Source of the DNA: Candidatus Thorarchaeota archaeon
GTDB taxonomy: Archaea > Asgardarchaeota > Thorarchaeia > Thorarchaeales > Thorarchaeaceae
Direction: 5' to 3'
NCBI GenBank assembly: GCA_029855935.1
Contig: JAGSHN010000023.1
Span: forward strand, 12,157-76,156
DNA length: 64,000 bases
Under the pieces are notes generated by a model. The model was not told where the DNA came from and did not search any database. It worked only from the letters and a program-made list of their open reading frames with translations. Position 1 is the first letter of the stretch. Every line of letters starts with the position of its first letter. The translations under genes were made by a program, and so were the position numbers. Of the stretch, positions 15,548 through 48,222 are shown piece by piece.

Positions 15548-15583
15548 ATACTGATGTCTTGACAGACAACACGGCCGCGAGAC

Positions 15584-18221: not shown

Positions 18222-18251
18222 CTGGTAGTCCTCCCGACGCGGCGACTACGA

Positions 18252-24854: not shown

Positions 24855-25661
24855 TAGGAACTACTCCTCTGTCTTTTACTACTATCCTCATAATGGCTGA
24901 ACTATATATACCCCGTCAGGAGCAGAGCAGAAGATCTATGCTCATTCATCTGGGGCCTCGGGGGGAGATTGCTACTGTATTTGGCTGTTCATCTCTTCAT
25001 ATCACGCTCGGGGCAATGACTTGATTTGTGCGCGTATTCATTATCGGCTCTGGCAATTGAGAGTTCGTACTGTCTGCGCATACGCCTCTGCAATGCCCTA
25101 CGATGAGAACATAGCGACAATTTTCATCTCAAGTCGACGGATGAATCTCTTATAGAAAGGAGGCTAATTCCCCCAGATTGGGGCAACTCGAGCCTTGACT
25201 CCTTGATAGCTAGCTACTAGATAGCCCAACAAGAGTCCGGAGGCGTGGGACTATATCCCTCATCCTATGTTCATCTCCGCTGACCGAATGTATGACACCG
25301 TGGACCTCAAATCGCCATCCGCGCTCGCCCAGCGGGATGGCCCAGCACAGCTCTTCAGAATATGAGATCGACAAGCCAGAGACGAATGACTATCTCAAGT
25401 TGAGCCTCCAAGGGCTATGCTCTTCTGATGCTGACCGAACAGAATCGTGACCATATCCACAAGAGGACAAGAGCTAATGAGCCTTGCAGTCCAATCTCTC
25501 AGCCTTGATAGTCACAATGGTAGTAGTGGCTCTTGAAGGCGCGTGAATGTTACCAGTTCGTCGAGAGGAGTAGGCCAAATATCTTGTTCGGACGTGTCTT
25601 CGAACGAGTACCCGTGAGGAAAGAAGAGAGAATACGCAAAGAGGAACAATCCATTGCGGCC

Positions 25662-26258
25662 CTAGGAGTTGCGGGAAGATCTCAACAGACTCACTGACTC
25701 AAGCACCTTTCTAATCCATTGCTTCGAGTACTTTTGTTTGAGTGCTGCTACTATGTCAACAATCGTGTCAAAGTCGCGTTCGTTGAACACTCTCTTCACA
25801 AACAGCGCTGTGGCAATCACTGACAGCTGTGTTGCGGTATATGATCCAAACTCCTCGACTAGCGTATCAATCACCTTCATTTCATTTTCGGCTAGGAAAC
25901 TAGCGAGCTCGGCTTCTCTCTTAGGAGAAATGAAATACCCCTTGTCAGAGTCCCACAAGATCCTAAGCCATCCCATTGCCTGAGCCAAGTTGGTAAAACT
26001 TGTCACCTTCGGAGAGTATGGTCCGTAGTGATACAGCGAATACCCAAGGTCCGTGCCGCCCTTCGCATCAAACAAGTACATTAGTTTCTGGATTTTTGTT
26101 CTCCCTATTTGCTTGTCAGGATGTCTTGCATATAATTTCCTTACGAGATAGTAGACCAGAGCAGGACCCTTTAGCAGACTCTTCATCTCTTCACAGACCT
26201 CCAGTATCCCTTGCTCGTTCCAGATCAGACGCATTGACATAGATTCTCGTCTTTGCAT
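25662..26258 (-). CDS. Panacea-domain (DUF4065/SocA-like) protein.
   Basis: TKIQKLMYLFDAKGGTDLGYSLYHYGPYSPKV matches the Panacea core (KLQKLLY...GPYSP). The start is uncertain (M at 26258 or 26240). It overlaps the 3' end of the upstream HD gene by 50-68 nt. Confidence 0.65.
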   Translation of the reverse strand: MQRRESMSMRLIWNEQGILEVCEEMKSLLKGPALVYYLVRKLYARHPDKQIGRTKIQKLMYLFDAKGGTDLGYSLYHYGPYSPKVTSFTNLAQAMGWLRILWDSDKGYFISPKREAELASFLAENEMKVIDTLVEEFGSYTATQLSVIATALFVKRVFNERDFDTIVDIVAALKQKYSKQWIRKVLESVSLLRSSRNS

Positions 26259-27447
26259 ATTTGCCTTGTAGTGCTTCCACTATGGGGGAATACGTTGAGA
26301 GAGGATAAATACGCCCCTCTTCTTTCTGAATGACCTGAATCTCTTCATTCTCAAGCCCATACCAAGTATTCATCTCTCTAAGACTATCCTCCCAGTACCA
26401 TATTCCGTTTGCGGAGAGCTTTGACTTCAGCCTGCTCAGCCTATCCTGTTCTTCTGATTGTATGCAAAGACCCCTTGTTTCATATAGAACTCGGGGGTGG
26501 TCTCTATTAATGATTCTTGTTAGTTCATCTTGCGCCTCTTGTCTCATGAGCTCCCACGCTGAGTAGTCATCAATCATCAGGAAGTCTTGGATGTCCTTTG
26601 GCGATGGAAGTTGGACTATTGCTTGTTTCAGTGCCTGTTGAAGAAGGTAGTCATATGCTCGTCGAGTTTTGTGACAATACACTTGGGTGAACATATGGTA
26701 CCTAGAAATAAGCAATGACTCCGCAATGTGCCATCCACCCTTCCTTACGCCAAGAACAACATCGCCGGTCTCAGGATCGACACCAAGTCCAAGAGTAACA
26801 ACTAGTCGCTCCAAGTCATAGATGCCATACTTGACTCCTGCGTGCAGAGAGTCTCTCAGGAGGTAGTCACATCGGTCGGCATCAAGCTGACTTGATATCA
26901 GAACCTTCCAAAATAGTCTTCCCTTGAGCCTCTTGGGGTTCCCGATTATCAAGTCTGCTATTTCTTCAGATTGGATTCCGTAGTTCTGGTTCAAGGGATG
27001 GTCTTCGATGACTTGCTTCAGTGGTCCATTGATGATTGAGACAGTATAGTCTTCGTGCTTATACTGCCTTCCAGTGGTCGGATTCGTTTGCATCAGTTCC
27101 TCGGACGCGTGAGAGAATGGCGGATGCCCCAGATCGTGAAGAAGCCCAGCAAGACGAACAATCTGGCGGTCCCTCTTGAAGCCAGCCTCCTCGTAGTCTA
27201 GATTGTCCCGAAGTATTCTCCTATTTTCTTCGTTTCCTATAATCGAGTCATACATTCGCGTTATCAGACGCATGACCCCGAGTGAATGTTCAAACCTAGT
27301 ATGAGTTGCACCAGGATACACCATGTCCGTCAGACCAAGCTGGCGTATTCTCCTAAGTCGCTGAATAGATGGGTGTGCTATGATCTCCTTTTCCCACTCA
27401 TTGAACTTCACGAAGCCGTATACTGGGTCTCGAACCTCGAACTTCAT
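26191..27447 (-). CDS. HD-domain phosphohydrolase, dGTPase/SAMHD1-like dNTP triphosphohydrolase family (COG1078).
   Basis: HTRFEHSLGV...LLHDLGHPPFSH...DADRCDYLLRDS are the canonical HD motifs of this family. The ORF is open to 27507, but the family consensus begins at MKFEVRDPVYGFV (27447). Confidence 0.85.
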   Translation of the reverse strand: MKFEVRDPVYGFVKFNEWEKEIIAHPSIQRLRRIRQLGLTDMVYPGATHTRFEHSLGVMRLITRMYDSIIGNEENRRILRDNLDYEEAGFKRDRQIVRLAGLLHDLGHPPFSHASEELMQTNPTTGRQYKHEDYTVSIINGPLKQVIEDHPLNQNYGIQSEEIADLIIGNPKRLKGRLFWKVLISSQLDADRCDYLLRDSLHAGVKYGIYDLERLVVTLGLGVDPETGDVVLGVRKGGWHIAESLLISRYHMFTQVYCHKTRRAYDYLLQQALKQAIVQLPSPKDIQDFLMIDDYSAWELMRQEAQDELTRIINRDHPRVLYETRGLCIQSEEQDRLSRLKSKLSANGIWYWEDSLREMNTWYGLENEEIQVIQKEEGRIYPLSTYSPIVEALQGKYAKTRIYVNASDLERARDTGGL

Positions 27448-28669
27448 CACGATATCCACACCCCAGCGCCACACTTCTTCACGTTGCGATATGTGCCCCG
27501 ATTGCAATACGGAATAAATGAGGATGAAATTCCAGACAAACAGAGAACAAGATCAGAATCACTTCTTGAGCCCTGACGTTCGCAAGATGGTCGTATTCCA
27601 ATCCAATTCCAAAACGTGAAACTCACAGGTGATGTATGGCCCTCTCTTTTGGCAGCCCGTTCGGCTACGCCAGTTCGTACGAGCACCGTATTCTTCGTGA
27701 TTGACGTCATGGTCACTGTTCGCATACTCCCCAAGATTCGTTGTCAGCCCACTTTCCCGCTCGAATGAGCAGAATACAGGGTACGAACACCATATGAATA
27801 CTTGTGCGATCCTGGCAGCCAGTTGAGGGAATCCGCAACTCTTCTATTTCAATCCACTGTCAAGAAAACGGCTGGGGCTACAATGACACGGTCCCGACCA
27901 CGAACCGCAGTCAAGCCCTCCATTGCCTGAGGGCCTAATAGTGACTCCGAAATTGATGCTGCGCACAACAAGATGACTGACCAAACAATCTCCCAGAGGG
28001 GGTATCGTTGCCTGTGGTCCGAGGAGCAAAGTTGCTATCACAACGAAAGCTCAGTGTGGCTGTAGCTGAGCTACTCAACCCGATCTACCTTACGAATCGT
28101 ATGCACACGGGCATTGCCATATCCTTCCTAGACCGAGCGTTCCGCCTAGCAGATTTCGGTAGCGGGTCGAAGTACCTCTCGGCTACTCCAAGCGTATCGG
28201 GGAGCAAACGTGCATAACCACCGGACTTCGTTCATTCCTGTTCAAGCGCAGCAATGGTGTCATCGTCAAACTCTTTGACATCATCGGAGAACCCAAGAAG
28301 GCTGCAAGCCTAGCGCTCCCAGCTTCCACAACGTGTTTCTTCCTGCTTGAGCCAACCGTTCACGTAGGCAGTTCAATTATTGACGAGAGTAAGCAACAGC
28401 ACCGCCTGCCCACAGGTCAACAGAGTTGAAAAGTAGCTGGATAGCAAAGACATCCGAGCGCTTTGATAGGCTCAGCCCACATAGGGGCTTGAGAAGAATG
28501 CCCGTATTGCCAGAAATCACCAAGCCCCTGGGAATTGGATAGACACAGACGCTCGACTGCTAGCCAAGTCACATCAACTGCAAGACAGCCAAGGAATGGG
28601 TGAAGGCGCAGGTAGAACTATGGGAGTTTTGTCACCATAGGCGAGACATCAGAAACAAACGTTGATTGT

Positions 28670-29149
28670 CTAGCCAATCAACGTGAATCCGTCAAAGATA
28701 CTGCAGCCGCAAGGTACTATCCGCAAAGGGAAACTAGGCGTTCCCAGAATCCTCTTTACCAGAGACAAGTTATTCGCAACAAAATCGCATATGTTCTGTG
28801 GGAGAACCAATATGTGACGGTAGTTGGGATTTCTCACGCCCATGCAGTCCAGCAACCCACCAAGAAATCCTTCAGTTTCCTTGAACTTGCTATCAAGACT
28901 GCGGATGGCTTCAGAAAAGGTTGATTCCTCAGCAATGTTCTTGAGTTCCACCAGGAATGCGGTGCATTTGTCATCCTCGAACATAACGTAGACTACATCG
29001 CAATGGGCCAAGTGCATTCTCCCAAGTTCCGCGTACTTCTCGAAGTTGAGAACCAGAAAGGGCAGACCGCCCTTGAGGATGATTTTGCAGTCATTCTCTT
29101 CATACTCGGCTTCCATTCTCGGCCCATTCGTCGTCCCCGGCACGTTCAT
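28670..29149 (-). CDS. Small protein with a PD-(D/E)xK-like nuclease motif, the putative partner of the upstream ATPase.
   Basis: HCDVVYVMFEDDKCTAFLVELKN contains D-hydrophobic-strand ... E-L-K. It is 159 aa, and its start overlaps the stop of the 29100-30833 ATPase. Confidence 0.4.
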   Translation of the reverse strand: MNVPGTTNGPRMEAEYEENDCKIILKGGLPFLVLNFEKYAELGRMHLAHCDVVYVMFEDDKCTAFLVELKNIAEESTFSEAIRSLDSKFKETEGFLGGLLDCMGVRNPNYRHILVLPQNICDFVANNLSLVKRILGTPSFPLRIVPCGCSIFDGFTLIG

Positions 29150-30833
29150 CGTCTCCTAAGCCTAGCGCCCACTCCAGCAGAATATCTATGACATCCGTCA
29201 GACTGGGAATGTGCTTTGTTAGCTCATCTGCGGGAACTTCTGATACTTCAACTCCTTCCTTCTCAGGCTTGTAGTAGTAGAACCGGATGTCAAGATCCCC
29301 TGCTCGCGCAGCGTATTCTGACAGAAGCTCAAGAGGACCGCCCTCAACAGGCACCCTCTGCATCTCCAGGAGCCTCTCTATCAGCTCACGGATCTTCTCG
29401 CTGCTGGGTCGGTGTATCTTTATGTATGCTAGGATAAGAACGATGAGGTCACTGTGGGTACTGAAAACCACTTGGTGCTCGTACTTGCTTGCAAGCGCCG
29501 CCAGAGTCAACCCCATCAGCAATTGAGCGGCATAGTGTAGTTGAGCCTCGGGCTCCTCTATGATGATCCTTGATCTTGGACGCGTCGAGAGAACTGGCAA
29601 CAGAATTCCCGCAACTTCTCCGGCCAGGGCCGAGGCCGAGTTCATTGGCACGGCGCACGCACCCGTGGAATAGAATAGACCCTTCGCCCTTTCGTAGGTA
29701 AGTCTGCCTTGAAGAACCGGAAGAAATAGCTCAATTGCTTCCTTGTCGTAGGAACCGTCGGCAATCTTGGATCTGCCCAGGCTCAGCCACGATATGTAGG
29801 AATGCAGAACGACATCTGACTCATACAGTGTGCTGTAGCCACGTCTGTCTCTTCGAATCGGTTCTTGCGAGAGGAGTTCTAGCTGGTTGATGACGAGGCT
29901 TCGTCCGAATGGAATGAAACGTACTTCCTCTAGACCGTATGACTCAGCATACGCAGCCCTGAGCGGTTGACATATTGACTCGTCTACGAATTCCAGAAGC
30001 ACGTCATCCAGCCACAATTGGATACGGTGGGGAAGGAAGGAACCTAGGACATAGCCAGGCCTGCTGGCCCTCTGGAGAATCTGACTGACTGTGGCCTCCG
30101 GACTCTTTGCCGACGAAGCAATCTTCTTCAGTTCGTCCAGCACGTTCTTCGAGAAGACCCTCTCAACCGCCCTACTGCTGGCCCTCATCGAGAATCTGAG
30201 CTCCAAAGCAATTGCAACTACTCCTTCGGGTTTCAGGTCAAATGAAACGTTCGCTTGACAGATCGTATTCCTCCTCAGGTCACCAAATTTCTCAGCATAA
30301 CTACGTGGCTCCGTAGAACTCTCAGCAATCAAGTCAAGGAACTCCGGCATTGATACCGAACTATCCAGTTTCGAGTCATCTCTCACCAAGACGATATCCC
30401 GATAGAAGTCTAGATTGGGCCGCAGCAAACTATCGACAGGAATGACGCCAGAGGCCTCTATGGTAAAGTTGAGAGTGCCATCTTCGGAGCGCCAGCGAAC
30501 GTTTTCCGCACCAGTCTGTTCTCTGAAAACCTCAGCGAGATTCGGTACTTGACTCTCTAAGCCTTCAAGGCCCAACGCGTACAACGCTACCAGCGCGTAC
30601 AAAGCCCTCAGCGAGTTTCGCAGATTCAGAGGCGGATAGTCCACATCATACGTACTTAGTAGGTTACGGAACTCAAACTCGCGTGCGTGCTCATCGAGCA
30701 TTAGAGTCGAAGCATACAAGGCTCTGAGGGTATACGACTTCCCCGTATTAGGCGGCCCGAACACGACAGTTATGTCGCCAATCTCTATATCCGCCGATCG
30801 TATCGGGCCCAAGTTCTCTATGTGGAATCCCAC
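29100..30833 (-). CDS. AAA_21/ABC-type (OLD/RecF-like) ATPase.
   Basis: Walker A is VFGPPNTGKSY. The C-terminal RIIIEEPEAQLHYAAQ...VVFSTHS carries the Walker B/D-loop and H-loop typical of AAA_21 ATPases of defence systems. Confidence 0.8.
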   Translation of the reverse strand: MGFHIENLGPIRSADIEIGDITVVFGPPNTGKSYTLRALYASTLMLDEHAREFEFRNLLSTYDVDYPPLNLRNSLRALYALVALYALGLEGLESQVPNLAEVFREQTGAENVRWRSEDGTLNFTIEASGVIPVDSLLRPNLDFYRDIVLVRDDSKLDSSVSMPEFLDLIAESSTEPRSYAEKFGDLRRNTICQANVSFDLKPEGVVAIALELRFSMRASSRAVERVFSKNVLDELKKIASSAKSPEATVSQILQRASRPGYVLGSFLPHRIQLWLDDVLLEFVDESICQPLRAAYAESYGLEEVRFIPFGRSLVINQLELLSQEPIRRDRRGYSTLYESDVVLHSYISWLSLGRSKIADGSYDKEAIELFLPVLQGRLTYERAKGLFYSTGACAVPMNSASALAGEVAGILLPVLSTRPRSRIIIEEPEAQLHYAAQLLMGLTLAALASKYEHQVVFSTHSDLIVLILAYIKIHRPSSEKIRELIERLLEMQRVPVEGGPLELLSEYAARAGDLDIRFYYYKPEKEGVEVSEVPADELTKHIPSLTDVIDILLEWALGLGDDERAGDDEWAENGSRV

Positions 30834-31646
30834 GGGGAGCTCCCTCGGTGGGGACGTGCTCGTTCTCCGAACAATAAGGCTTTCGATAGAGGGCTGCAGG
30901 AGACTATGTCACGAGCGGACTGGGCGGCACGTAAGAAACCGGTTTTCTCATTAGAACGGCATTCCCGAAGACCAAGGCATCGCACGCCCCTGAGCCGCCC
31001 CTTTGCTTAGCTACATTGTCACGAAAATGCAAACTCTGTGCACAGATGTGCAACGAGAGAGCAAGCGTCGACACATCAGGTACAGCAGTATGAGGGCCAG
31101 ACAGTTGACCAACGCCAGTGCGGGCCACGTCCTCAAGAGAAAAGATACTCAAACTCATTGAACGGACACACTTGACGGTCTACATCTAGAACGTGAAAGT
31201 GCCCGCGGCTGCCACCGGGTACACGCGGTAGAAGTGGAAGAGTAGTCAAACTCCGGGACCAATTCCAAATGTGACAGTTCAACAGCAAGCGCGCCTGCAA
31301 ACACAAGGTGAAAGACATAGTCATCGCTCGGAGAAGATCTCTCCCCGTACGATGTGCAGCTCCAGAATCTGCCCTATTCTACGACTCTTCAGGCATTCGT
31401 TCCGTCTTCTCGTGGCGGGGATAGACGCAGGACCTGATTGTACCAACAAGCACGGGCGGAGACCCCGACTCGACCCGGTCACGAGTACAGCGTTAGAAAC
31501 AGCCTTGGTCGAAGAATCGACTATGGCATTGGAACTCCATCATCAAATCAGCCCGCTAAATTCAGGTTTCCGCTGTCCCTGGAGTGCTCTTCTCCAAAGA
31601 AACGACTCGCTGTTGGCCAGCCATCGGGTTTCGCAGACGCCTGTCA

Positions 31647-32312
31647 CTAACCCAGAGATCTCCGAAGAAGGACCCTATTCAGACCTCTTTTTCCTCTCTT
31701 TTTCCTGATTGAGGAGCGCTTGACTACCTTCCACTTGCCTAGGTCGAAAAACAACACGTCTATCCGGTGTCCATCCTTTTGTCGGTCGTCTAGTTGTTGC
31801 ACGTCATCTATCGCTTTCTCCAAGGGATTCTGATCTCGTCCCCCTCTAGAAGTTGGGACCAAAAGAATGACCTCTATCAGGTGACGGTAGCTCAACTTGT
31901 TCTTGAATTCCACCAGCTTCTCAAAGTCCTCTCCATAGCCTCTCGGGTTTGTTGTTAACTTGAACTCCACCACTGCAAGATTCAGTTGATCTTTTCCCTT
32001 GACGTGGATGATGAAGTCCGGTATTCGTCCAGTATCGAAAATGTGTTGGTAACCTTTGTTCACTTCTCCCTGCACAATAGCACCGCCAAAATCCACAACT
32101 CGCTGTTCAATCAGACACCGGAGCTGATGGTAGAACTCGTATGCGATAGGGCGTTCAAGGAATTTCAACTCTGCAGCACTATTCTGCCCTTTAGTAGACG
32201 ATATCTGCTGATAGTCATAGTGAGATAGTTGACAATACTCTTGGTCCATTCTTTCAAGCGCACAGCAAACAGCATCAAGAACACCCGAACACTTGGCTTC
32301 AACTTTGTCCAT
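31647..32312 (-). CDS. Standalone PD-(D/E)xK-family nuclease-like protein.
   Basis: RIPDFIIHVKGKDQLNLAVVEFKL contains (P)D-hydrophobic strand ... E-x-K. The tail RKKRGKRGLNRVLLRR is basic. 221 aa. Confidence 0.5.
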   Translation of the reverse strand: MDKVEAKCSGVLDAVCCALERMDQEYCQLSHYDYQQISSTKGQNSAAELKFLERPIAYEFYHQLRCLIEQRVVDFGGAIVQGEVNKGYQHIFDTGRIPDFIIHVKGKDQLNLAVVEFKLTTNPRGYGEDFEKLVEFKNKLSYRHLIEVILLVPTSRGGRDQNPLEKAIDDVQQLDDRQKDGHRIDVLFFDLGKWKVVKRSSIRKKRGKRGLNRVLLRRSLG

Positions 32313-32858
32313 TCATGTCCACCTACCTGTCCCGTTTCAAACCCGTAGCAATCAGATTGCTAATTGCGGGGTTTGCTCGCTCAAATATGAAACCTAGCTA
32401 GTCTGATATTATGACCAGAAAGACGGCCGCCGCCCGTATTTCAATCTGTCGGCTACACAGCAGTTGCCGAGGTGGTTCTCAGGGGAACATCGTGCAAGTT
32501 CAAACAAGCTCGCAGAATGCTTCCCAAGATGCGGTTTCAGAAAGAGCATCACAAGACGGACGGACGACAAGATACCAGCTGAAACATTGTGTCATTTCGG
32601 ACTTGCTGGCCAACCGACATAGGCCGAAGCAAAAGGGGCCCGAAAGAACGACTCATCGTTCCGATGGAAGGCGACGAAGTGAATTCGGAGCAACCGTTGG
32701 GAAACTATGTTCAATGCGCGACAAGCTGTGCCCCTTGAAGCAGTTTGAAACCTATTGACCGCCTACAGGCACCACTCCGGAAGAGCCTACCATCGAAGGA
32801 CAAATAATATCAGGCAGAGCAACGTCACAATGCTTGCTCAGTAGGAGGGCTGCATGCA

Positions 32859-34778: not shown

Positions 34779-34976
34779 GTTCGTCTAGTCACGCCAAGAT
34801 GCGAAGTCCTTTCGACTACGACTCTCAGAAACCTCAGAGTATGTCCGGATAGACAGTACCTCTCTCGTATGCCGAGAGGTTCCCAGCGGTGACAATCCGC
34901 CGACGATGGACGCGACACGGGCAATAGCCCCGAGATTCCCATAGACGTAGGACAGGCTATGTGCCAAAACCTCTAA

Positions 34977-39008: not shown

Positions 39009-39531
39009 TAGGTACTTTCACCCTGTTCCCTTTCCACGGAGTTCTTGTTTCCCCGCACTAAAGACTTGCGCTGGGTATTTGACAAGCTGCTCCAAGGTCC
39101 CTAAGCAATGTGGCCCAATCTCAAACGCCAAACCAGACTCTCGGAGGGTGCTCGGTCATTTGTTTCAGTGATCGACCCCAAGAGTGTGAACAGGCCGGCA
39201 CTGAGGATGACTGGAGAACTGCGTGATGTATACTCAGTGAGGCAGGTTAGGCGCCAAGCCTCTCTCGATAGGCCAAGAGTGGCGACAAGCTTGGCGGGTC
39301 AGATGTGATTTCGGGCAGGCTGAATCTGCCAGTACACTAGCCTGGGCAGGAAGAAACTGAGCATCGGGGCAATGAAGGCGCTGGTACACCCGGAGCTTAC
39401 ACAGTCCCTTGGCGGCGTCCCCTCTGAACAGGCATTCATCGGGCTTTCAGCGGCATATGAGCACAGCATCCGCGTGACGACTCGTCGAACTGCGCTGAGA
39501 GAGAACTGGCATCGCCCCTTGAGGAGAATCA

Positions 39532-40059
39532 TCACAAGAATTTTCTCACGAAGTACCTGAAAGATTCACTTCTACGTTGTGCAAGCGAGGGGTCGAATCT
39601 CTCGATGATTCTATTCATAAATACCGAACGCGGTATCGACTGCGGTATTATGATATTGAACCACTGTTTTGTGACACGTGGCGGAATCGCGAGCCTCCTG
39701 ACACCAGCAATCTGCCGAAGAATTTCTCTCTCAATTCCCGCGACATACCACGCCTCTATCTCGGGTATGACAACTACTATGCGCTGCTCGTCCCCAATCC
39801 CATATCGTCCGGCTATTTGGTTTCTCAGTGCCGTCACACAGGGATAGCGATCCAGATCCCGAACAAGGACATACTCAGTACTCTTCCGTTCCAAGGTATG
39901 AATGAATTTCCGAATTTTCCTTTTCTCCATCTGAGCGTACTTGACGATTTGAACACGATCATAGTGTTTCTCAAGACGTGAACAAAGGATTCTCCTGAAG
40001 AAGCGTTCGTCGTCATCCCCTTCGACGAAGACATAGAAAGACGACATTTCTTTCGACAC
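39532..40059 (-). CDS. Small Toprim-like (DUF4276/RloB-like) protein, partner of the upstream AAA_21 ATPase.
   Basis: The N-terminus FYVFVEGDDDERFFRRIL resembles the hhhVEGxTE start of DUF4276/RloB-type Toprim proteins. Its start is 2 nt after the ATPase stop. 175 aa. Confidence 0.5.
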   Translation of the reverse strand: MSKEMSSFYVFVEGDDDERFFRRILCSRLEKHYDRVQIVKYAQMEKRKIRKFIHTLERKSTEYVLVRDLDRYPCVTALRNQIAGRYGIGDEQRIVVVIPEIEAWYVAGIEREILRQIAGVRRLAIPPRVTKQWFNIIIPQSIPRSVFMNRIIERFDPSLAQRRSESFRYFVRKFL

Positions 40060-40061
40060 CG

Positions 40062-41360
40062 CTACTGCAGAATGCCCTGCACGAATAGGTCATCCACACC
40101 GAGATCGTTCTCCAGAAACGCCATTACCTCCTCGTCATTTCTTGGACGCGTGACCTGCGAATATCCATCCTCGTCCCGCGTAACAAGGAGAAGGTTATCA
40201 ATACCAGCGTGCTTGACCACTTCGGGGTTGTGCGTTGTAATTATCACCTGTTTGTTCATTCGGCTCGAGACCTCTTTCATCATATTCACAATCTTCGAGA
40301 TGAGTAGAGGGTGAATGTTTCGCTCGGGCTCCTCTATGATAACGAGAGGGTTCTTTTCGAAATACAATGCGATTACCAACGTTGTGACATTCACCGTACC
40401 ATCTGAGATCAGAAAGGCTGGCAGGAACCGTTTCTGTGAATAGATCTCTCTGATGCTGGCGAGAAGCGATTTGTCCGGAAGTCTCTCTACCGTGAAGTCC
40501 TCTACGAGTGGCAGGACATCCTTCACTAATGACGAGATCAGGTCCCGGTCTCGCTTATTATCCAAGATGCGCTTCAGAATCAGGGGCAGATTGCTACCGT
40601 CTGGCTCAAGCTCGGTCTTGCCAGTGACGGGAGTTGCACGTTTCATAAGTCGCGGATCAAAATCGTAGATAGAGATGTTACGCAGATAGTGTGCCAAGCT
40701 CGAATAGAACGGTGAAAGAAGGACTGGATCTTCAATGGAGAGTCTTCGTGGGCGCGGACGGGCAGCATATCTCATATCTCGCGCTAGAGACAGGTAGAAG
40801 AAGCGTTCTATGCGTGTGTCCGAGAGGGAATCAGACATTTCCATCGTCACTCTGCGACCATCATTGATAGTAGTGATAGTGCCTTTGCGAACTTCTCCAC
40901 GGAGCGCATCACCACCGTTCGGCCGGCGAGTCCCGTATTCACACACTGCCGTGAGTTTGTCCGACACTCCCGAGTAGTCCAGTTTGCGTTTGTAGAACCT
41001 GATTGAGAGTTCGTAATCGTACCGACTGACGGAGAGATAGGCATCTCGAGATATCCGCAAGATGTCTCTTGCTTCGAGTGAGAGTTGGATGGACAGGTCA
41101 CGCAAAGAACCTATGGCAAGATTGCGTAAGTAGGCCACTCCACCTTGCATCGAAATAGCGTTCTCCAACCCCATCGTGGTGATATCCTTGAGGAACCGGA
41201 ACAGGGCGATAAGATTGGATTTTCCTGAGGCGTTCGGTCCGACTATCACGTTGAAGTCGCCCAACTCAATCTCCGTTTCATTGAAGGTCCTGAAATTGCT
41301 CACCCTTATTCTTCGGATCCTCGTTGTGTCCTTCGGTCGCATAGGTTGGGAACCTCCCAA
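40062..41360 (-). CDS. AAA_21/ABC-type ATPase.
   Basis: Walker A is VGPNASGKSNLIALF. The C-terminus LVIIEEPERNIHPLLISKIV...VIITTHNPEVV carries Walker B, Q/H-loop features. Confidence 0.8.
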   Translation of the reverse strand: MGGSQPMRPKDTTRIRRIRVSNFRTFNETEIELGDFNVIVGPNASGKSNLIALFRFLKDITTMGLENAISMQGGVAYLRNLAIGSLRDLSIQLSLEARDILRISRDAYLSVSRYDYELSIRFYKRKLDYSGVSDKLTAVCEYGTRRPNGGDALRGEVRKGTITTINDGRRVTMEMSDSLSDTRIERFFYLSLARDMRYAARPRPRRLSIEDPVLLSPFYSSLAHYLRNISIYDFDPRLMKRATPVTGKTELEPDGSNLPLILKRILDNKRDRDLISSLVKDVLPLVEDFTVERLPDKSLLASIREIYSQKRFLPAFLISDGTVNVTTLVIALYFEKNPLVIIEEPERNIHPLLISKIVNMMKEVSSRMNKQVIITTHNPEVVKHAGIDNLLLVTRDEDGYSQVTRPRNDEEVMAFLENDLGVDDLFVQGILQ

Positions 41361-41811
41361 CTTGTTTCGGAGAATTTGGCGCGTGTTGAGGTACTATCTC
41401 GGGAACGTATAAGGATTTGGAATGAACTGCTGGCTGAACTGCGGAGCTGGTTCGCCAGTCCTATGGATGCTTCGAACTGGCCTGTGCTTGCGCCAGCGAA
41501 TCGGGGAAACGCCCTCCAAGACAACGCCCACCCTGTAGCGTGCTGTCGTTTCTCAGTTTCTGAGAGTTGGCTCCTTCGAATTCTTGTCCTCTACTACCTC
41601 CAGCAATGTGATGTGCTACTGTCTATGGTGTCGACTCCGCTGGCATGCGCCAACACTCGCGGGAGAGGGCTTGTCCGGCGGAAACAGAGGATGCCCCAGG
41701 GGATTGTCCTGTTGGAACAGCAGCTGCGCTGGGCTCAGCTCTCAAATGATTCTAGAGTCGGCAGCCGATAGGCATATGCTGCCCGTTGGTGGAAGATAGC
41801 ACTCGAGGAGC

Positions 41812-42825
41812 TTGAAGTATACAGCCGAAGACGAGGAGAGGAATCGCACCTACTATGTCGCGTTGAACAAATCGCGCAATGATCTATTCCACCCGTACAA
41901 CAACAAGGGCGGAGGCACACTGGAGTGGGACAACGATTTCAGGGACAGGGTTCGCGAGGCCAAGGCCTTGCGGAGGACCAATGGATTGATTGAAGAGTTG
42001 GATTCGCCACCCAAGGCCCGGAAGTCGCTACCCACAAGGTCATTGAGGGTGATATACCGTCGGGACCCTGTCTTGGAGTCGATCGCGAGCAGATTCCTGC
42101 CCCGAGTCATCGATGCCACTCATATCTACGGTCTTCTGTTGTGTCCGCGCCGACACCAGTACGGTACACTGATGGGCGCAGCCGGGATGAAGTGCGACGA
42201 GGTTGAACGCAGCGAGTTCTCGCCGGCCTTCGGCTCTGTCCTACACAGTATGATCGCAGAGTTTGACTATGCCACGGGCTCCACTGAGAGCGCTCTCACC
42301 GTGCTCCATCAGGCTGAGTTCCTCACCGGCCCCGACAAGAAGAGGCTCCAGAATGCGATCACCTCGTACTCGGAGTTCACAGAAGAGATAGGTCTGAGGT
42401 CATCAGAGGGAGATCGAGTGTTGTCAGAGAGGGAGATCTACGGAACCATAGATGTGGACGGGCAAGTCATCGAGCTCCGCGGGGTCATCGACATAGCAGT
42501 TGTCCGATCCGACGGTAAGATCGACGTCTACGACGTCAAGACCAACTATCTGCCCCCTAGTGGCACTTCTGAAGAGAGGCTCAAGCGTGAGTTCCTGCGG
42601 AAACACCACGAACGTCAGCTCCTGACATACAAGTCAATGCTCGAACAACAGGGACACACTGTTGAAGGTGTCTACGTTGTGGCTGTATCAAAGAAGAGTG
42701 CAACCCAAGTCAAGTGGAACCTAGTTCAAGTTGACGATGCAGACTGGTCATTGCAAGAACTTTGTGAGATGCTGCCGATAACGGTCGAAGAAGAGGGACT
42801 CAGAAAGACTGAGAACAAGTACTGA
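41812..42825 (+). CDS. RecB-family PD-(D/E)xK nuclease-like protein.
   Basis: GVIDIAVVRSDGKIDVYDVKTNY contains D...D-x-K. The downstream QLLTYKSML resembles the RecB-family QxxxY motif. The N-terminal 200 aa are unassigned. Confidence 0.5.
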   Translation: MKYTAEDEERNRTYYVALNKSRNDLFHPYNNKGGGTLEWDNDFRDRVREAKALRRTNGLIEELDSPPKARKSLPTRSLRVIYRRDPVLESIASRFLPRVIDATHIYGLLLCPRRHQYGTLMGAAGMKCDEVERSEFSPAFGSVLHSMIAEFDYATGSTESALTVLHQAEFLTGPDKKRLQNAITSYSEFTEEIGLRSSEGDRVLSEREIYGTIDVDGQVIELRGVIDIAVVRSDGKIDVYDVKTNYLPPSGTSEERLKREFLRKHHERQLLTYKSMLEQQGHTVEGVYVVAVSKKSATQVKWNLVQVDDADWSLQELCEMLPITVEEEGLRKTENKY

Positions 42826-43318
42826 AGGATCTGTGAGTTCAGAGGAATGTGCAACTAGGCGGAACAACGTCACCAAGACTGACGCTCTCGCTGACTCTCT
42901 CGACGACCATAGTATCTGCAACATTTCGCCAGCCTGGCCTCTCTACGAGCAGGCCGCCTTTCCCAGTGGGGTGCGGTTTTGAAGAGTCGAAACGGCGTGT
43001 TCCTCCCCAGAATAGGAGGAGGTTCCACGGAGAGACCAATGGGACGCGCAGTAGATATGTGGCCATAGTCACGCGGCCTCGTTTGATGCTCCAACGGAGG
43101 CAGAAGGCTGCACAGCCCCCTCGCAGGCTTGCATCTGGCTGCACCAGTATCGCGTTATGTCGACATCGGGTACAGATTGGCTTGCTATGCCACATCGCCC
43201 GGTAGAGTTACGGTAACGGTTCTCCCTGACAGCTAGCTCGAATCGGCCGAGCGAGGCCCTAAAATAGCATGATGTTTCAGTATCGTCATGTCGGCAAAGT
43301 ACAGAGGGGTTTGAGATT

Positions 43319-43762
43319 ATGGAACACTACACGGTACTGTGGAGAGGGCCCTTCACGTATGATGAGGTCATTGAGGAGGAGGGCTACGACGACGATGAGG
43401 ACCTCTATGCCATCGCACACATACCACCAAGACGTGGTCCAAGAACGCTCTACGTGGGACATTCGTTCCGCCAGTATGTTGCGGACAGGTTGAAACAGCA
43501 GCCAGCGATCGATGCCATCTACGAGAAATATGGTGAGAGATCGGTTCGGTACTATCTTGGAAGAATCAAACTGAAACCTGGACAGCGCAGATCTGAGAAG
43601 CGTGTTGCAGATATCGAGGCTGCAATAATCTGCAACCACGGCGACGAATTGGAGTTCAACTATGTGAATACTGTAACGTACTCGGGTCGGGACCTCTCAG
43701 TATCTCACAGGGGGTCGGTACCACCGCGCCTTAGGGACTTCAAGACCAGCGACTGGGACTGA
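43319..43762 (+). CDS. Possible GIY-YIG-like small nuclease (weak).
   Basis: DLYAIAH-x12-LYVGHS has GIY...YIG-like spacing, followed by a conserved-looking R (RQYVADR), E and N (ICNHGDELEFNY). 147 aa. The call rests on pattern only. Confidence 0.3.
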   Translation: MEHYTVLWRGPFTYDEVIEEEGYDDDEDLYAIAHIPPRRGPRTLYVGHSFRQYVADRLKQQPAIDAIYEKYGERSVRYYLGRIKLKPGQRRSEKRVADIEAAIICNHGDELEFNYVNTVTYSGRDLSVSHRGSVPPRLRDFKTSDWD

Positions 43763-43832
43763 GGTGTGCAGTGGTGGCAATGCCGACGCCATCTCCATCC
43801 ACGCCAAGGCCAGAACAAGAGATTAATACGGA

Positions 43833-45233
43833 GTGAAAGAACCTGCGAAACGAATGAGATCTTCTATGCGCAGGGCTGCCTGTATCTCATTGGTCCTGGT
43901 TGTAGTCGTGGCATGGTACGGCGTCGTGATTCTTGGGGAGTACGATTCCAACATCACAGAGACGACTTCTGACCTCAAGTTGCCCGCCCCAGTGATTACA
44001 ATGTTCAAGAACGACAAGAGGTACGCACTGTTAGTGTCGTGGGATGATGGTGTGAATGATATGGACTTCTCGTTCCTCGAAGACGAACTGGGCATCAAAC
44101 ACACCTCTTTCGTCGTGACTAGCAGAATAGCCGACAAGAAGTTCTGGGGCCTGGACATAATGTTCAGGGGCCACGATATCCAGTCTCACACAAGAGAGCA
44201 CAAGGCAACCGGTCTCGCCAACCTCTCCTACTGTGAATATCTGATCTCCCGGAGCATAGTCGACATCGAACGCACTTATGGATTCACGCCGATAGTCCTA
44301 GCATATCCGTACGGTTCAACAAATGCCATTACCAGTGAGATCGCACTGAGATATGTCGACGTGGCGCGTGGTACGATACCGGAGGGGATTCTCAGACTGG
44401 GAACGTGGCCCATAAAGCACAGGGGCAACGCAAGACATTCCACCTTCGACCTCAACGGCCTCAGTTCGGAGAATATGGACAGACTAGCGGAGAGGTTCTA
44501 CGAGATGACCAAGCTTGAGGGCAATCGCGCATTCAAGATCTACGGCCATACCGACCTAGCCACATTCAACCTGACCGAACGCGCTATGCTGTTTGATGAG
44601 CTGAAGAAGATCGCATTCCGAAACGACACGTGGTACGCCTCGTGGGGCGAGGCAATCGCATACGACATCCTGAGGACGAACACCACGATAGAGGATTTCT
44701 CATACGATGATAGCGAAGTGATGTTCAGAACGGTGACGAGCGCGAACGTCACCAGATACCCAGTTCAACTGACATACAGGGTGGAGATTCCAAAAGAGTG
44801 GGATTCGATAGTAGTCTACGATGACGGCAGAATCAGCAGCGACTTCACCCTGACCAATGGAACCCTGCTAATCAATTCAAAGCCAAGAAACCAGACAATA
44901 AGAATAGTGAGAACTCAAGACACTATGATTGACACCGAAGGGCCTGTGATAGGGGGAGTGACCATAGCAACGGGCACTGAGGGCCTGTTGATCACATTCG
45001 AGGTCACCGACGTCCTGGGCTTCGTCACCGACGTGAACATGACTGTCTCGGTTGGAAACAATACTTTCTTCTTCAATAGGATCGTGAACCCGATCTTCTG
45101 GGACAATAGCACGTACGGCCGGGCAATCTTCGCAGACGATATTCAGTCATCCGACGGGATTGACATAACGATCTGCGCCCAGGACAGCAGTGGAAATCTG
45201 TCTTCTCTCTCCTATCAATACCAAGGATGCTAA
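43833..45233 (+). CDS. Membrane-anchored polysaccharide deacetylase (NodB/CE4 family) with a C-terminal beta-rich extension.
   Basis: N-terminal TM CISLVLVVVVAWYGVVILG. The CE4 motifs are LLVSWDDGVND and GHDIQSHTREH. There are many NxT/S sequons. Confidence 0.75.
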   Translation: MKEPAKRMRSSMRRAACISLVLVVVVAWYGVVILGEYDSNITETTSDLKLPAPVITMFKNDKRYALLVSWDDGVNDMDFSFLEDELGIKHTSFVVTSRIADKKFWGLDIMFRGHDIQSHTREHKATGLANLSYCEYLISRSIVDIERTYGFTPIVLAYPYGSTNAITSEIALRYVDVARGTIPEGILRLGTWPIKHRGNARHSTFDLNGLSSENMDRLAERFYEMTKLEGNRAFKIYGHTDLATFNLTERAMLFDELKKIAFRNDTWYASWGEAIAYDILRTNTTIEDFSYDDSEVMFRTVTSANVTRYPVQLTYRVEIPKEWDSIVVYDDGRISSDFTLTNGTLLINSKPRNQTIRIVRTQDTMIDTEGPVIGGVTIATGTEGLLITFEVTDVLGFVTDVNMTVSVGNNTFFFNRIVNPIFWDNSTYGRAIFADDIQSSDGIDITICAQDSSGNLSSLSYQYQGC

Positions 45234-45911
45234 TTGACCAAAGAAACCGCCTAAGAGGTCACGTCCGTCATCCCAGACGTAACGGACTCTCCACGACCAT
45301 AATGGACAAACGTGACCTAGGTCACCGTGTGGATGTGACAGGAAGGCCGACGGGCTGCCGACAAGAAGCGCAACGCAGATACCGTGTTGGTTCTTTCTAT
45401 AGACAGGCTGGCCTCAATGTGGAGTCATCCCTGGGAAAATCCACTACTGTGAGCTATCGAAAGGATTCCGTCGGAGAAAGATCCCATTCTCACAATCAGT
45501 TTCTATGTCTCCCCTATGGCTTGAACACACCGCATAGATTTAGGGAACAGGCAAGACCAAAGTGGATCCCGCGTTTGACCTCAAAGGAAAACGTATCGTC
45601 CCAGGTTGAACTTCATCCCAATTCACCAGATTGCAGAGACCAAGAGTTCTCTCTGATCGCACGTCGTTCTTCCCAGTTTTCCTGGCTCGACCACCTGCCC
45701 ACGTCAGATCCTCACAACCCACCTTCAGGAGCAGCCCTATTTCTGTTCCAATTGGACAGGCTACGTTGACGTTGCGGGGTACCCGAGCATATTTCACCAT
45801 TCCACCGAGGTTTATTTTTATGCACGAGTCAACGTGTTGCAGGCGGGAATCGGCTAGTCTGCTTGGTCTGTAGCAATCCCAAAGAACAACTCGCGTATTG
45901 AGGCGATCACC

Positions 45912-47690
45912 ATGAGCGAGTCACTAAACTCACGTTTCCTGCGCATCCAGCACATCCTAGAACGGGTTCACGAAGGCGACTACGTCCTTCCGGAGTTCCA
46001 GAGGAGCTTCGTATGGTCGAACTCCGACATCAAGGATCTTCTCGTTTCATGTCTGAACGGGTATTTCATTGGGACGTTCCTCCTTCTTAGGGGTGATGCG
46101 GCAAAGAGCTTTAAGACACGGTATTTCGAGGGAGTTCCCGAGGCCAATCCGCAAATCCCACGAGAGCCAGATGACAGGACTGTCGATCGAATTGTCTTGG
46201 ACGGGCAACAAAGGATAACTGCGGCATACTATGCCCTCTATGCGCCACCTGGTATCACACCCAAAGGGGCGTCATATCCCAGACGCTATCTCCTGAGGAT
46301 TGAGAACTGTCACGTCGGCGACATCGACTGGGAGGATCTCATAGAAGACTGGTCCGAGAACGAGAGCAGTCGAAAAGTCCCTCACTCGTCAGGTGCAGCT
46401 AGACTTAGAGAACTCATTCAGAAACATGATTTTGTCAACCTTCTGAACGATTCAGAGTTCCGCAAATACCTCTTCGAGAATCATCTTCTGCCGTTCGCGG
46501 TTCTGAAATCAGACTCAGATTTCTCAAGGTGGTTGGACGATTACGCGGACTACCTTGAGGAGAAGGGCATAGAAAAGGCTCAGGTGAGAGAACGGAAACA
46601 AGCCCTCCGAGAAAGACTGAAAAACGTGCTGAATTTCCAAGTTGCGGTTCTAGAGTTGGAGGAGAGGGACCTCGTCAAAGTCGTCGACCTCTTTGAGCGA
46701 ATCAACCGAACAGGTGTTGCTCTCTCTGTGTTTGCACTAGCTACCGCAGTCTACATGAAGGGAGGAGTAAACCTCCGCAGACTGTGGAGGGAGTTCTATG
46801 CAGCATCTCCTACAATTCAGCAGTTCTGTCAAGAGGATGATGAAACATATCCCAAATACGTTCTCCAAGTGATGGCTCTTCTCCAAGGCAAGGAGGTCAA
46901 GAAGAAAGTCCTGATTGACTCCAGACAGTTGAGTGTTACATCTGACCGATGGTCACAAGCCACGGAACTGCTCGAAAAGGCGCTCGACCGTGCAACAAGC
47001 ACGAGAAACGGTTATGGAGCAATCAAGTCAAATCTCCTACCTTATCGGTCGGCAATTGTCACTCTCGCTGCTCTTCTGGCCAAGTGCGGAACTGCTAGTG
47101 ACTTTGACAAGCTGGACGCTTGGTACTGGAGTTCCGTCTTCACAGCAAGGTATGCTGGGGCCAGCGAAACAGCGATCAAGCAAGACTATGACCAAGTATG
47201 TCGATGGCTGAAGGATGGTACCCAAGAACCAAGTGTTGTCACTGAAGCGGCGAATCGTGTTTCGAGTCACAAGCTCGAGAACATCAGAACTGGCGGTACC
47301 TACAAAGCCATACTTTGCCTCATCTCATTGGCTGGTGCAAAGGACTTCCTAACCGGACAGAGTCCCGAGCTAGGCTTGCTCAATGACCATCATATCTTTC
47401 CGAAATCATTGTATCGAGATAGACGCTCAGTTGATTCAATACTCAACCGGACACTCATTACCGACACGACAAATAGAGATATCTCGAATAAACGCCCGTC
47501 CGAGTATGTTCGGGAGATCATAAAGGCTCTTGGCGGGGAGGAGGACGATGCGAGAGATATGCTGAAGAGTCATCTGATAGACGATGAATGTTTCGAGGCA
47601 ATGAAACAAGATGACTATTCGCGCTTTATGGCCCGCCGGGCTGAGCTGATTCGTAGTGAGATGATTCGTCGAATCCGGTACGGGTCTTGA
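45912..47690 (+). CDS. GmrSD-family type IV (modification-dependent) restriction endonuclease, DUF262 + DUF1524.
   Basis: The N-terminal DUF262/ParB-like motifs are YVLPEFQRSFVW and DGQQRITA. The C-terminal DUF1524 His-Me finger is LNDHHIFPKS...NRTLITDTTNRDISNK. Confidence 0.85.
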   Translation: MSESLNSRFLRIQHILERVHEGDYVLPEFQRSFVWSNSDIKDLLVSCLNGYFIGTFLLLRGDAAKSFKTRYFEGVPEANPQIPREPDDRTVDRIVLDGQQRITAAYYALYAPPGITPKGASYPRRYLLRIENCHVGDIDWEDLIEDWSENESSRKVPHSSGAARLRELIQKHDFVNLLNDSEFRKYLFENHLLPFAVLKSDSDFSRWLDDYADYLEEKGIEKAQVRERKQALRERLKNVLNFQVAVLELEERDLVKVVDLFERINRTGVALSVFALATAVYMKGGVNLRRLWREFYAASPTIQQFCQEDDETYPKYVLQVMALLQGKEVKKKVLIDSRQLSVTSDRWSQATELLEKALDRATSTRNGYGAIKSNLLPYRSAIVTLAALLAKCGTASDFDKLDAWYWSSVFTARYAGASETAIKQDYDQVCRWLKDGTQEPSVVTEAANRVSSHKLENIRTGGTYKAILCLISLAGAKDFLTGQSPELGLLNDHHIFPKSLYRDRRSVDSILNRTLITDTTNRDISNKRPSEYVREIIKALGGEEDDARDMLKSHLIDDECFEAMKQDDYSRFMARRAELIRSEMIRRIRYGS

Positions 47691-48222
47691 CATTGCGGTT
47701 CTCGTGGTTGGTCGGTGGCACGATGGTCGTTCTAGGCAGTTCGCTGCCCAATCCACTTCGCTGACAGATAGCTCGGGCCGTGGTCTTCGTGTGCAAGTCG
47801 AGGTTGCAGACTGCCTTCGTCGGCGCCGATGACTTCGACCGTACAGTAGAGATGCTGTCGCAGATTGTAATCTCAGACGGTGGGGGGAGATCCAAGGTCC
47901 CCTACGATGAAACGCCGCCTAGGCGGTCTCTTCATCTCCGGCTGGTGGGCTATCACACGTGATTCTCGGCGAAGGATGCTCACAGGGTTTGGTCGGTCGA
48001 GGTCTCAATGGCCGATCACGAGAGTATGACCAGGCTGGCGTTGATGAAGCGGGTCGAGAGAACTGTGTGATATGCACTCAGTGGGGCAAGTTGAGAGCCA
48101 GACCTCTCTGGACAACTCACCGTTTCGCCGGGCGTCACCCTGAACGTCGTCACGGCCGGTTCCCTGAGAACGGTGTCGACAGATGCAGTGACCTCGATGG
48201 CATTGCTCTCTTCCGGGCCGAT

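Follow-up and report, generated by a model that had tools for sequence, protein, structure and literature searches.

A chromosomal defence island with long non-coding spacers in an uncultivated Thorarchaeota archaeon, probably remodelled cassette by cassette

We analysed a stretch of 64,000 nucleotides (the window) from a Candidatus Thorarchaeota archaeon (assembly GCA_029855935.1, contig JAGSHN010000023.1, positions 12,157 to 76,156), and in particular the region at 25.6-47.7 kb of the window. An earlier note, which was made from the sequence alone, had described this region as a cluster of independent defence modules on both strands, separated by long stretches without open reading frames (ORFs). 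It had suggested PADLOC, a comparison with related genomes, and tetranucleotide deviation as ways to check this description. We find here a genuine but fairly ordinary defence island, located in the chromosome of an uncultivated archaeon. Its genes are as follows (all positions are those of the window unless another locus is named, and values such as 2e-13 are E-values):

25662-26240, minus strand: 192-aa Panacea-like (PanA-like) protein, partner to the HD protein; the two genes share 50 nt
26191-27447, minus strand: SAMHD1/EF1143 (YdhJ, COG1078)-type HD deoxynucleoside triphosphate (dNTP) triphosphohydrolase-like protein, 418 aa; Pfam HD and HD_assoc_2
28670-29149, minus strand: partner of the ATPase, 159 aa, with a D..ExK (PD-(D/E)xK-like) motif; overlaps the ATPase gene
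29100-30833, minus strand: 577-aa ABC-type ATPase (AAA_15/AAA_21), encoded first in its two-gene cassette; Pfam AAA_15 2e-13
31647-32312, minus strand: standalone PD-(D/E)xK-family protein, 221 aa; motif P97-D98...E115-x-K117
32859-34778, plus strand: OLD-family nuclease, class-1-like, standalone; AAA_15 2e-40, OLD-like_TOPRIM 1e-16, PADLOC Old 1e-54
34977-36065, plus strand: calcineurin-like phosphoesterase (SbcD/YhaO-like nuclease), 362 aa; Metallophos 4e-16
36062-38065, plus strand: SbcC/YhaN-like SMC-type ATPase, 667 aa; AAA_27 (YhaN family, the best match), AAA_23, SMC_N
38250-39008, minus strand: JAB/JAMM metalloprotease-like protein, 252 aa; Prok-JAB 25.5 bits (borderline, as the cut-off is 25), PADLOC JAB 1e-4
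39532-40047, minus strand: HEC-01B, DUF4276/TOPRIM-like; PADLOC 3e-8, weak matches to DUF3226, DUF4276 and OLD-TOPRIM
40062-41342, minus strand: HEC-01A ATPase; PADLOC 4e-50 over the full profile, Pfam AAA_21 5e-29
41812-42825, plus strand: RecB/Cas4-like PD-(D/E)xK nuclease, 337 aa; PDDEXK_1 49.5 bits, 7e-13, PADLOC Cas4 2e-6
43319-43762, plus strand: small GIY-YIG nuclease, 147 aa; fold confirmed by structure
43866-45233, plus strand: signal-anchored Polysacc_deac_1 surface protein, not a defence gene; Pfam 3e-9, hydrophobic anchor at aa 1-28, no PADLOC match
45912-47690, plus strand: 592-aa type IV restriction-like enzyme of the GmrSD/DUF262 family; GmrSD_N 91.8 bits (cut-off 33.2)

According to Pfam, PADLOC and structure comparisons, Old, HEC-01 and the GmrSD-type enzyme lie together with at least five further nuclease or ATPase-nuclease modules inside 22 kb. 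This amounts to at least 11 nuclease or defence-type genes, with three full PADLOC-level matches (Old, HEC-01, and HEC-05/PDC-M55C). We judged the density of defence genes from this window and from the loci that we fetched for comparison. The modules appear to be independent one- and two-gene cassettes, mostly centred on a nuclease, and they lie on both strands.

Nearly every module in the earlier note was supported by Pfam, PADLOC, the Protein Data Bank (PDB) or structure, including the PADLOC check that it had suggested. The OLD nuclease, the SbcCD-like pair, the RecB-like nuclease and the GmrSD enzyme all have matches in Pfam or PADLOC. The HD protein of the proposed HD and Panacea pair has both HD and HD_assoc_2, and its partner is Panacea-like, just under the Pfam cut-off. 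Two pairs with an ATPase are present: the AAA_15 ATPase with the D..ExK protein, and HEC-01. The JAB/MPN protein is a borderline match to its family, while what had been called a possible GIY-YIG nuclease has that fold. The note also counted two standalone PD-(D/E)xK-like nucleases; we found one of these (31647-32312) and did not locate the second.

The concept of the defence island reportedly comes from Makarova, Wolf, Snir and Koonin in 2011. As in other defence islands, unrelated restriction-like, ATPase-nuclease and toxin-antitoxin modules are densely clustered on both strands, and the content varies, cassette by cassette, between related islands. This island differs in that we saw no mobility genes, and in that its spacers are unusually long and non-coding: they make up 24% of the region, with a median length of about 500 nt. 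The true gaps are:

27448-28669: 1222 nt
30834-31646: 813 nt
32313-32858: 546 nt
39009-39531: 523 nt
41343-41811: 469 nt
42826-43318: 493 nt
45234-45911: 678 nt
47691-48222: 532 nt

Most of these gaps contain ORFs of 64-180 aa in a mechanical list of ORFs, and a public gene caller accepted 6 of them. To score each ORF, we used the log-likelihood per codon of its codon usage, with a model trained on 23 confident genes from the window. The ORFs in the gaps scored from -0.12 to +0.07, which is indistinguishable from spurious ORFs: 103 spurious ORFs that are nested in real genes scored -0.10 ± 0.13, with a 95th percentile of 0.10. Accepted genes mostly scored 0.16-0.30, and the weakest of them, a methyltransferase at 22427-23110, scored 0.09. 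The coding fraction of the region is 0.76, as compared to 0.92 in the flanking blocks of surface-protein genes, or 0.84 if every called ORF is kept. The median intergenic length is 508 nt, as compared to 180 nt in the flanks. The earlier note was thus essentially right that the region has unusually long stretches without ORFs, although it missed the gap at 39.0-39.5 kb.

We also searched the gaps for remnants of genes. Among 125 stop-free segments of at least 38 aa from all of the gaps, there were 11 Pfam hits with E <= 0.1, where about 12 were expected by chance, and 2 weak PADLOC matches. Another 97 segments from the gaps at 12.6-25 kb and 56.5-57.1 kb gave Pfam matches at chance level only. 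We also looked, in a simple way, for AT-rich boxes in front of first genes, which gave nothing informative.

The gaps are not assembly errors, because the region has the same sequence, at 99.98-100% identity, in three assemblies. JALVPO010000016.1, a contig of the metagenome-assembled genome (MAG) GCA_027031745.1, matches the window at 99.98% identity, with 2-5 mismatches per 21 kb. Logan contigs of SRR13622960 are 99.98-100% identical to the window, and a third assembly, with a contig of 135.5 kb, encodes the same proteins. The gaps at 25-57.7 kb are reproduced in the three assemblies, and the window has no N.

To see how such an island changes, we compared it to another defence island, L013, from the MAG GCA_027031765.1. 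Besides RAMP genes and an AAA_15 gene, L013 carries a Metallophos and SMC pair and an intact gene for a prokaryotic Argonaute (pAgo). It shares exactly two cassettes with the window: the ATPase with its small 159-aa partner (79% nucleotide identity) and the Metallophos and SMC pair (76% nucleotide identity). Gene by gene, the amino-acid identities are 86% (the phosphoesterase), 75% (the ATPase) and 58-67%. The similarity ends where the cassettes end: for the ATPase cassette it reaches into the 3' end of the gene for the small protein, where it stops, and for the Metallophos and SMC pair it includes the upstream spacer. The arrangement is different as well. In the window, the two cassettes are divergent, with 4 kb between them, while in L013 they are convergent and only 1 kb apart. 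Their neighbours in L013 are the RAMP genes and the intact pAgo gene, while in the window they are the HD/Panacea pair, the standalone PD-(D/E)xK gene and the OLD gene. The comparison with relatives that the earlier note had suggested therefore gave two shared cassettes in another arrangement and with other neighbours, and it also gave reciprocal relics. Outside of genes, these features matter for what follows:

23612-23683, minus strand: relic of the PIWI part of a pAgo gene, with an in-frame stop; it corresponds to residues 577-600 of the L013 pAgo, with 81% nucleotide identity over 70 nt and 62% amino-acid identity over 24 aa
12803-13017 of L013, between the Metallophos and pAgo genes: frameshifted remnant of an OLD C-terminus, 73 residues (aa 566-638)
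30834-31140, minus strand: non-coding leader of the ATPase cassette, about 300 nt; 72-79% nucleotide identity to its counterpart in front of the ATPase gene in L013

The window carries an intact OLD gene at the site that is equivalent to the OLD remnant in L013, and L013 carries an intact pAgo gene, of which the window has a relic. These reciprocal relics are direct evidence that genes have been lost and that short relics of them survive in spacers. The pAgo relic sits just outside the region, 2 kb to its left. We considered if the adjacent 371-aa ORF at 23739-24854 might be a decayed pAgo, and rejected this, as there is no similarity beyond the relic of 24 aa and the relic is in another frame. 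(This ORF has a codon score of 0.054 and no match in Pfam, NCBIfam or PADLOC.)

Because the leader is conserved with L013, part of one spacer is a cassette-specific leader. In the alignment of the two leaders, L013 has two insertions of about 66 nt. The called ORF at 30904-31158, which lies in the leader, is not conserved in L013, where its ATG is ATT and an indel of 7 nt shifts the frame.

The earlier note had suggested that the longest gap, at 27.5-28.7 kb, holds decayed genes, since it had dense stop codons in the frame that was checked. We saw dense stops in all six frames of 27448-28669. Neither the DNA in front of other HD genes nor the DNA behind the ATPase cassette in L013 shows conservation with this gap, and it contains no recognisable remnant and no match to Pfam, PADLOC or Rfam. 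More broadly, when we compared all of the ORFs from nine fetched loci to the gaps with tblastn, we found just the leader shared with L013, the pAgo relic, and the spacer between the OLD and Metallophos genes. The support for decayed genes is thus indirect: no remnant was recognised in the gap for which the suggestion was made, while the comparison of related islands did uncover real relics.

Our preferred explanation, to which we give a probability of about 70%, is that the island was assembled and remodelled cassette by cassette, and that its spacers are leaders along with mostly degraded remnants of genes. Repeated insertion, replacement and deletion of cassettes, presumably by recombination, would leave long spacers behind. 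These spacers would combine cassette-specific leaders or promoters with the remnants of lost genes, most of which would have decayed beyond recognition. The cassettes most likely act each on its own, and their common role would be defence against viruses. The comparison with L013 is direct sequence evidence for turnover cassette by cassette, and such turnover would explain why some islands are gene-poor without invoking hidden genes or RNAs.

Several observations weigh against this explanation. First, coding density is also low elsewhere in the window: at 12641-25661, where two of the gaps measure 1765 and 2551 nt, the coding fraction is 0.43, and at 56.5-64 kb it is 0.79. Second, no relic lies in any gap within the region's own coordinates, as the pAgo relic is 2 kb to the left. 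Third, our search for relics covered only Pfam, PADLOC and about nine loci fetched for comparison, and it has low power in both directions, since the Pfam scan of the upstream gaps missed the known PIWI relic. Fourth, two of the cassettes are not certain to be for defence: the HD and Panacea-like pair is also found in housekeeping neighbourhoods, and the Metallophos and SMC pair is also found among housekeeping genes. Finally, the one relative that we found in the genome collection, the archaeal isolate Dive96_bin2.169, with 65% identity for the M23 peptidase that lies to the right of the island, has a contig that ends inside the M23 gene.

Alternatively, the gaps might encode functional non-coding RNAs or small proteins of the defence systems, such as antitoxin RNAs, guide-like RNAs or regulators. 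The conservation of the leader at 72-79% between two MAGs could be explained in this way, as could the 6 small ORFs that the gene caller placed in gaps and a repeat of about 110 nt that occurs in two of the gaps:

39162-39268, plus strand: copy 1 of the repeat; 70% identity over 111 nt to copy 2, E = 1e-6
48002-48112, plus strand: copy 2 of the repeat, in a second spacer

The 35-nt core of this repeat occurs solely at these two sites and in 0 of 100 shuffled sequences, and there is no further copy in the window. A 26-nt pattern from the core had no match in metagenome or viral collections. However, no Rfam family reached its gathering score anywhere in the window, and the sole match with E <= 1 was to RT-19 RNA (E = 0.14, 27 bits versus a gathering score of 78 bits). 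The repeat does not appear to be structured: fold z-scores were 0.0 to 0.6 for both copies on both strands, the two copies fold differently, and neither has a terminal structure. The leader's fold z-score was just 0.09. As for small proteins, the codon usage of the small ORFs is like that of our null set, and the sole ORF that could be compared, the one in the leader, is not conserved. The other gaps are not conserved in any fetched locus. Overall, the suggestion in the earlier note that the gaps could hide small RNAs found no support in Rfam or in the folds, and we consider functional RNAs or small proteins improbable as the explanation for the gaps. The repeat may be a relic of a duplicated small gene. 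The pattern of substitutions between the copies is weakly three-periodic, but this is not significant, so the idea stays a guess.

A different possibility is that an integrated plasmid, a provirus, or an element like an integrative and conjugative element (of 22 kb, or spanning 13-50 kb) delivered the defence genes as a block, in which case the gaps would be the element's regulatory DNA. The GC content is 47-53% at 13-50 kb, as compared to 55-58% in the adjoining surface-protein genes, which speaks for this possibility. Also, the Logan contigs end at around 18,530 and 41,130, while the MAG contigs run through both sites, and these breaks may reflect strain heterogeneity. On the other hand, the transporter genes at around 55-64 kb are as GC-poor as the island, so it is the surface-protein genes that are compositional outliers, and not the island. 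For this reason we rejected GC and tetranucleotide composition as a way to delimit the island, and the compositional check that the earlier note had in mind does not help. The note reported no visible integrase or transposase, and indeed, for the genes called from 7 to about 62 kb, no Pfam family for an integrase, a transposase or other mobility functions is on record, nor is one for a relaxase, replication or virions. We found no tRNA and no direct repeat that brackets the region; in the repeat scan, none of the flanking repeats was longer than 34 nt at 74% identity. Furthermore, the cassettes have different histories, given their differing amino-acid identities to L013 and their rearranged order, which speaks against delivery as a block. 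We consider it quite improbable that a single element brought in the island.

It is very improbable that the locus is unremarkable, and that low coding density and scattered nuclease genes either run through the whole genome of this MAG or were created by a mosaic metagenomic assembly. In favour of this reading, coding density is also low in two other parts of the window, this is MAG sequence, and the Logan contigs break inside the region. Against it, adjacent blocks reach a coding fraction of 0.92, the region of 22 kb appears to hold far more nuclease or defence-type genes than background would give, and three assemblies are nearly identical through every gap.

If the island was indeed built up cassette by cassette, then what are the cassettes? 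The AAA_15 ATPase and its 159-aa partner are the most novel part of the island. The ATPase matches PDC-M56A, PD-T4-4_A and AriA in PADLOC at 1e-15 to 1e-16, and only at the two ends, with the P-loop and the signature motif. The 159-aa protein has no match in Pfam or PADLOC. In a word-indexed search of a database of 5.8 billion sequences, it had only 2 homologues with E <= 0.001, and both of these adjoin the same ATPase. Its D50, E67 and K69 are invariant in all 4 of the known sequences. The ATPase and its partner are found together in 3 of 3 contexts, including the window, and all of these loci are from uncultivated organisms.

The layout of this pair, an ABC-type ATPase of the AAA_15/AAA_21 kind followed by an overlapping gene for a small nuclease-like protein, is shared with Septu PtuAB, PARIS AriAB, AbiL, PD-T4-4 and PDC-M56. 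It differs from PD-T4-4 and PDC-M56 in that the ATPase's match is confined to the terminal motifs and the partner matches neither system. Because the partner has no match in PADLOC or Pfam and just 2 homologues, the pair belongs to no named system. The ATPase would be the sensor or motor that licenses the small nuclease, and the same would hold for HEC-01. It is possible, although we lean against it, that the pair and its leader are an undescribed two-gene anti-virus system and that the relics record how defence systems were replaced in place. If this were true, then the pAgo and OLD relics would record one defence system replacing another at the same site without the machinery of a mobile element. 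Separately, a near-perfect palindrome of 26 nt (28659-28684) lies across the stop codon of the gene for the 159-aa protein, and it may be a signal to stop transcription.

The HD protein is related to dNTP triphosphohydrolases. The closest solved structures in a search of the PDB were 2hek (8e-48), EF1143 (2o6i, 2e-38) and SAMHD1 (1e-19). Its homologues number more than 6600. Among the best 120 of them, identity is 51-67%, and the named ones span archaea and bacteria (including proteins from MAGs). The closest homologue is in a MAG with a neighbouring accession number, which also carries a fragment of an archaeal 16S gene. Its partner scored 24.4 bits (E = 6e-5) against SocA_Panacea, where the Pfam cut-off is 25.7 bits, and it matched the C-terminal region of DarG in PADLOC (1e-10). 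The homologue of the partner in another locus, L009, was likewise marked as weak. A homologous partner is encoded directly downstream of the HD gene, overlapping it or within about 10 nt, in 5 of 5 contexts including the window. In the other 4 contexts, the partners are of 172-190 aa and are 37-51% identical:

L009: beside hydrogenase genes
L011 (an archaeal MAG), 5959-12365: inserted into a type III restriction-modification operon, with the methyltransferase gene on one side and the ResIII/endonuclease genes on the other
L012: among bacterial housekeeping genes
L016 (Methanomassiliicoccaceae): beside rpS6e and aIF2-gamma

The HD/YdhJ type is among the putative toxins that Kurata et al. 2022 (PMC8832971) list as paired with PanA (as T34, and as "notest", which is to say that it was not tested). 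They report that the toxin gene precedes the antitoxin gene, with an overlap of -4 for the HD/YdhJ type. The HD and Panacea-like pair is therefore already a known prediction. It resembles PanAT in that a gene for a YdhJ/COG1078, SAMHD1-like HD protein is followed by an overlapping gene for a Panacea-like protein, and the pair is kept across archaea and bacteria. It differs from PanAT in that the Panacea score is just below the Pfam cut-off and in that the pair is also found among ribosomal and translation genes, a setting that would suit a toxin and equally a housekeeping dNTPase under regulation. The pair is putatively a toxin-antitoxin or defence module, or else a regulated dNTPase, and neither assignment is certain. 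Either way, the SAMHD1-type dNTPase is presumably restrained by its Panacea-like partner.

The OLD protein combines an ABC ATPase and a TOPRIM domain in one polypeptide. It is flanked by the divergent PD-(D/E)xK gene and, 199 nt downstream, by the Metallophos gene. Among its neighbours, there is no helicase gene adjacent to it (that is, no UvrD-like partner such as is found in Gabija or class 2 systems). Like P2 Old and the class 1 OLD proteins, it has an N-terminal ABC ATPase, a C-terminal TOPRIM domain, a strong match to Old in PADLOC, and no partner helicase. It differs from them in its archaeal host and in that OLD lies beside the SbcCD-like pair in two related islands. We predict that it acts as an ATP-powered TOPRIM nuclease.

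The phosphoesterase gene is always followed by the gene for the SMC-like ATPase, and the two overlap by 4 nt in the window. The pair is found in 3 of 3 contexts (the window, L013, and a more distant locus, L022). In L022, the phosphoesterase is 44% identical to the one in the window and the ATPase is 33% identical; the pair adjoins a DNA methyltransferase gene and SurE, without OLD. Because the pair occurs there without OLD, OLD is not an obligate partner, and we rejected the idea that OLD, Metallophos and SMC form one three-gene system. In L013, the SMC orthologue is apparently split into two genes, and because the split coincides with X residues in the translation, we suspect a run of N in the L013 contig.

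By inspection of its sequence, the SMC-like ATPase has no CxxC zinc hook. In its place, aa 273-323 form a central hydrophobic transmembrane hairpin of two helices, which is kept in L013 and L022. The hairpin would imply that this SMC-like nuclease complex is anchored in the membrane. The YhaO and YhaN proteins of Bacillus are also known as SbcF and SbcE. As in SbcCD/Mre11-Rad50 and YhaO-YhaN, a gene for a calcineurin-like phosphoesterase overlaps a gene for an SMC-like ATPase with N-terminal and C-terminal halves of the head. The pair differs from SbcCD/Mre11-Rad50 in that the hook is replaced by a transmembrane hairpin in the middle of the coiled coil and in that the ATPase, at 667 aa, is shorter than SbcC or Rad50. 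It could process DNA ends at the membrane.

Just downstream of this pair, on the other strand, is the gene for the JAB protein. Although its match to Prok-JAB is borderline, by inspection its metal site looks intact (E27, H88-x-H90 and S103-x-x-D106).

HEC-01A and HEC-01B are encoded 14 nt apart on one strand. In PADLOC, HEC-01 (Hma-embedded candidate 01) is an ABC-type ATPase with a DUF4276-like protein, and both of these components are present in the right order and are adjacent. There are differences as well: HEC-01 itself is a computational candidate, the match for the B component is modest, and we saw no Hma helicase around the pair here.

The remaining nucleases are encoded by single genes. 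For the standalone 221-aa protein, P97-D98 and E115-x-K117 are invariant in about 22-23 homologues, and its predicted structure has a predicted local distance difference test (pLDDT) score of 82. In Foldseek, the top matches to this model were nucleases with the restriction-endonuclease fold (PaqCI, Hef, Exo5, Vsr and Shedu); their E-values were 0.1-0.9, with none at E <= 0.001. Another defence locus has a homologue alongside PRTase-CE, HEPN and TIR-LRR genes. The GIY-YIG protein has the GIY...YIG...R...E...N set of motifs as well as the fold, and Y30, Y45, G47, R57, E100 and N114 are kept in its family of about 47 clusters. These two proteins and the RecB/Cas4-like nuclease likely each act alone.

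The GmrSD-type enzyme matches PDC-M55C (1e-30, over aa 189-582) and HEC-05 (3e-29) in PADLOC. Near its C-terminus, by inspection, there is a DHHIFP motif that resembles a His-Me finger. Like GmrSD, BrxU and SspE, which are DUF262-DUF1524 enzymes, it has a strong GmrSD_N (DUF262) match, and its C-terminal half, with the DHHIFP motif, aligns to PDC-M55C and HEC-05. It differs from these enzymes in that Pfam's DUF1524 was not detected with E <= 0.01. Such an enzyme would be expected to cut modified DNA.

Defence islands, OLD, GmrSD, HEC-01, pairs of the PanAT type, and ATPase-nuclease pairs are all of known kinds. Current concepts are unchanged by this island, and its value lies in cataloguing: it adds a well-documented archaeal example from a poorly sampled lineage. 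The units that seem most worthy of attention are the rare pair of an ATPase and a small nuclease, the widespread pair of a SAMHD1-type dNTPase and a Panacea-like protein, and the membrane-anchored (as predicted) SbcCD-like pair.

The extent of the island is clearer on the right than on the left. On the right, it ends with the GmrSD-type gene; from 48.2 kb onwards, the genes encode an M23 peptidase, beta-propeller/TSP3 proteins and a subtilase, which are secreted or surface proteins. On the left, the boundary at 25.6 kb is arbitrary, because genes of toxin-antitoxin or defence types begin at around 15.6 kb:

15584-16447, minus strand: fused MNT-HepT gene (nucleotidyltransferase and HEPN) of the toxin-antitoxin type; HepT-like 2e-27, Polbeta 3e-18
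19333-20661, left of the region: AAA_14/DUF4143 ATPase

There is another MNT gene on the other side of the island, at 58674-59109 on the plus strand; this one is separate and is followed by a HepT gene that is truncated to 49 aa. Also to the left of the region, on the minus strand at 9652-12640 and 17070-18221, are 3 well-supported genes for proteins of 383-490 aa with no match in Pfam or NCBIfam, except that one of them has a faint match to MarR_2.

Large, paralogous surface-protein genes lie on both sides of the island. Within the beta-propeller/TSP3 gene, at 52918-53126, there are 3 tandem repeats of 69 nt (23 codons), and related repeats are present in its paralogue at 8.1-8.9 kb.

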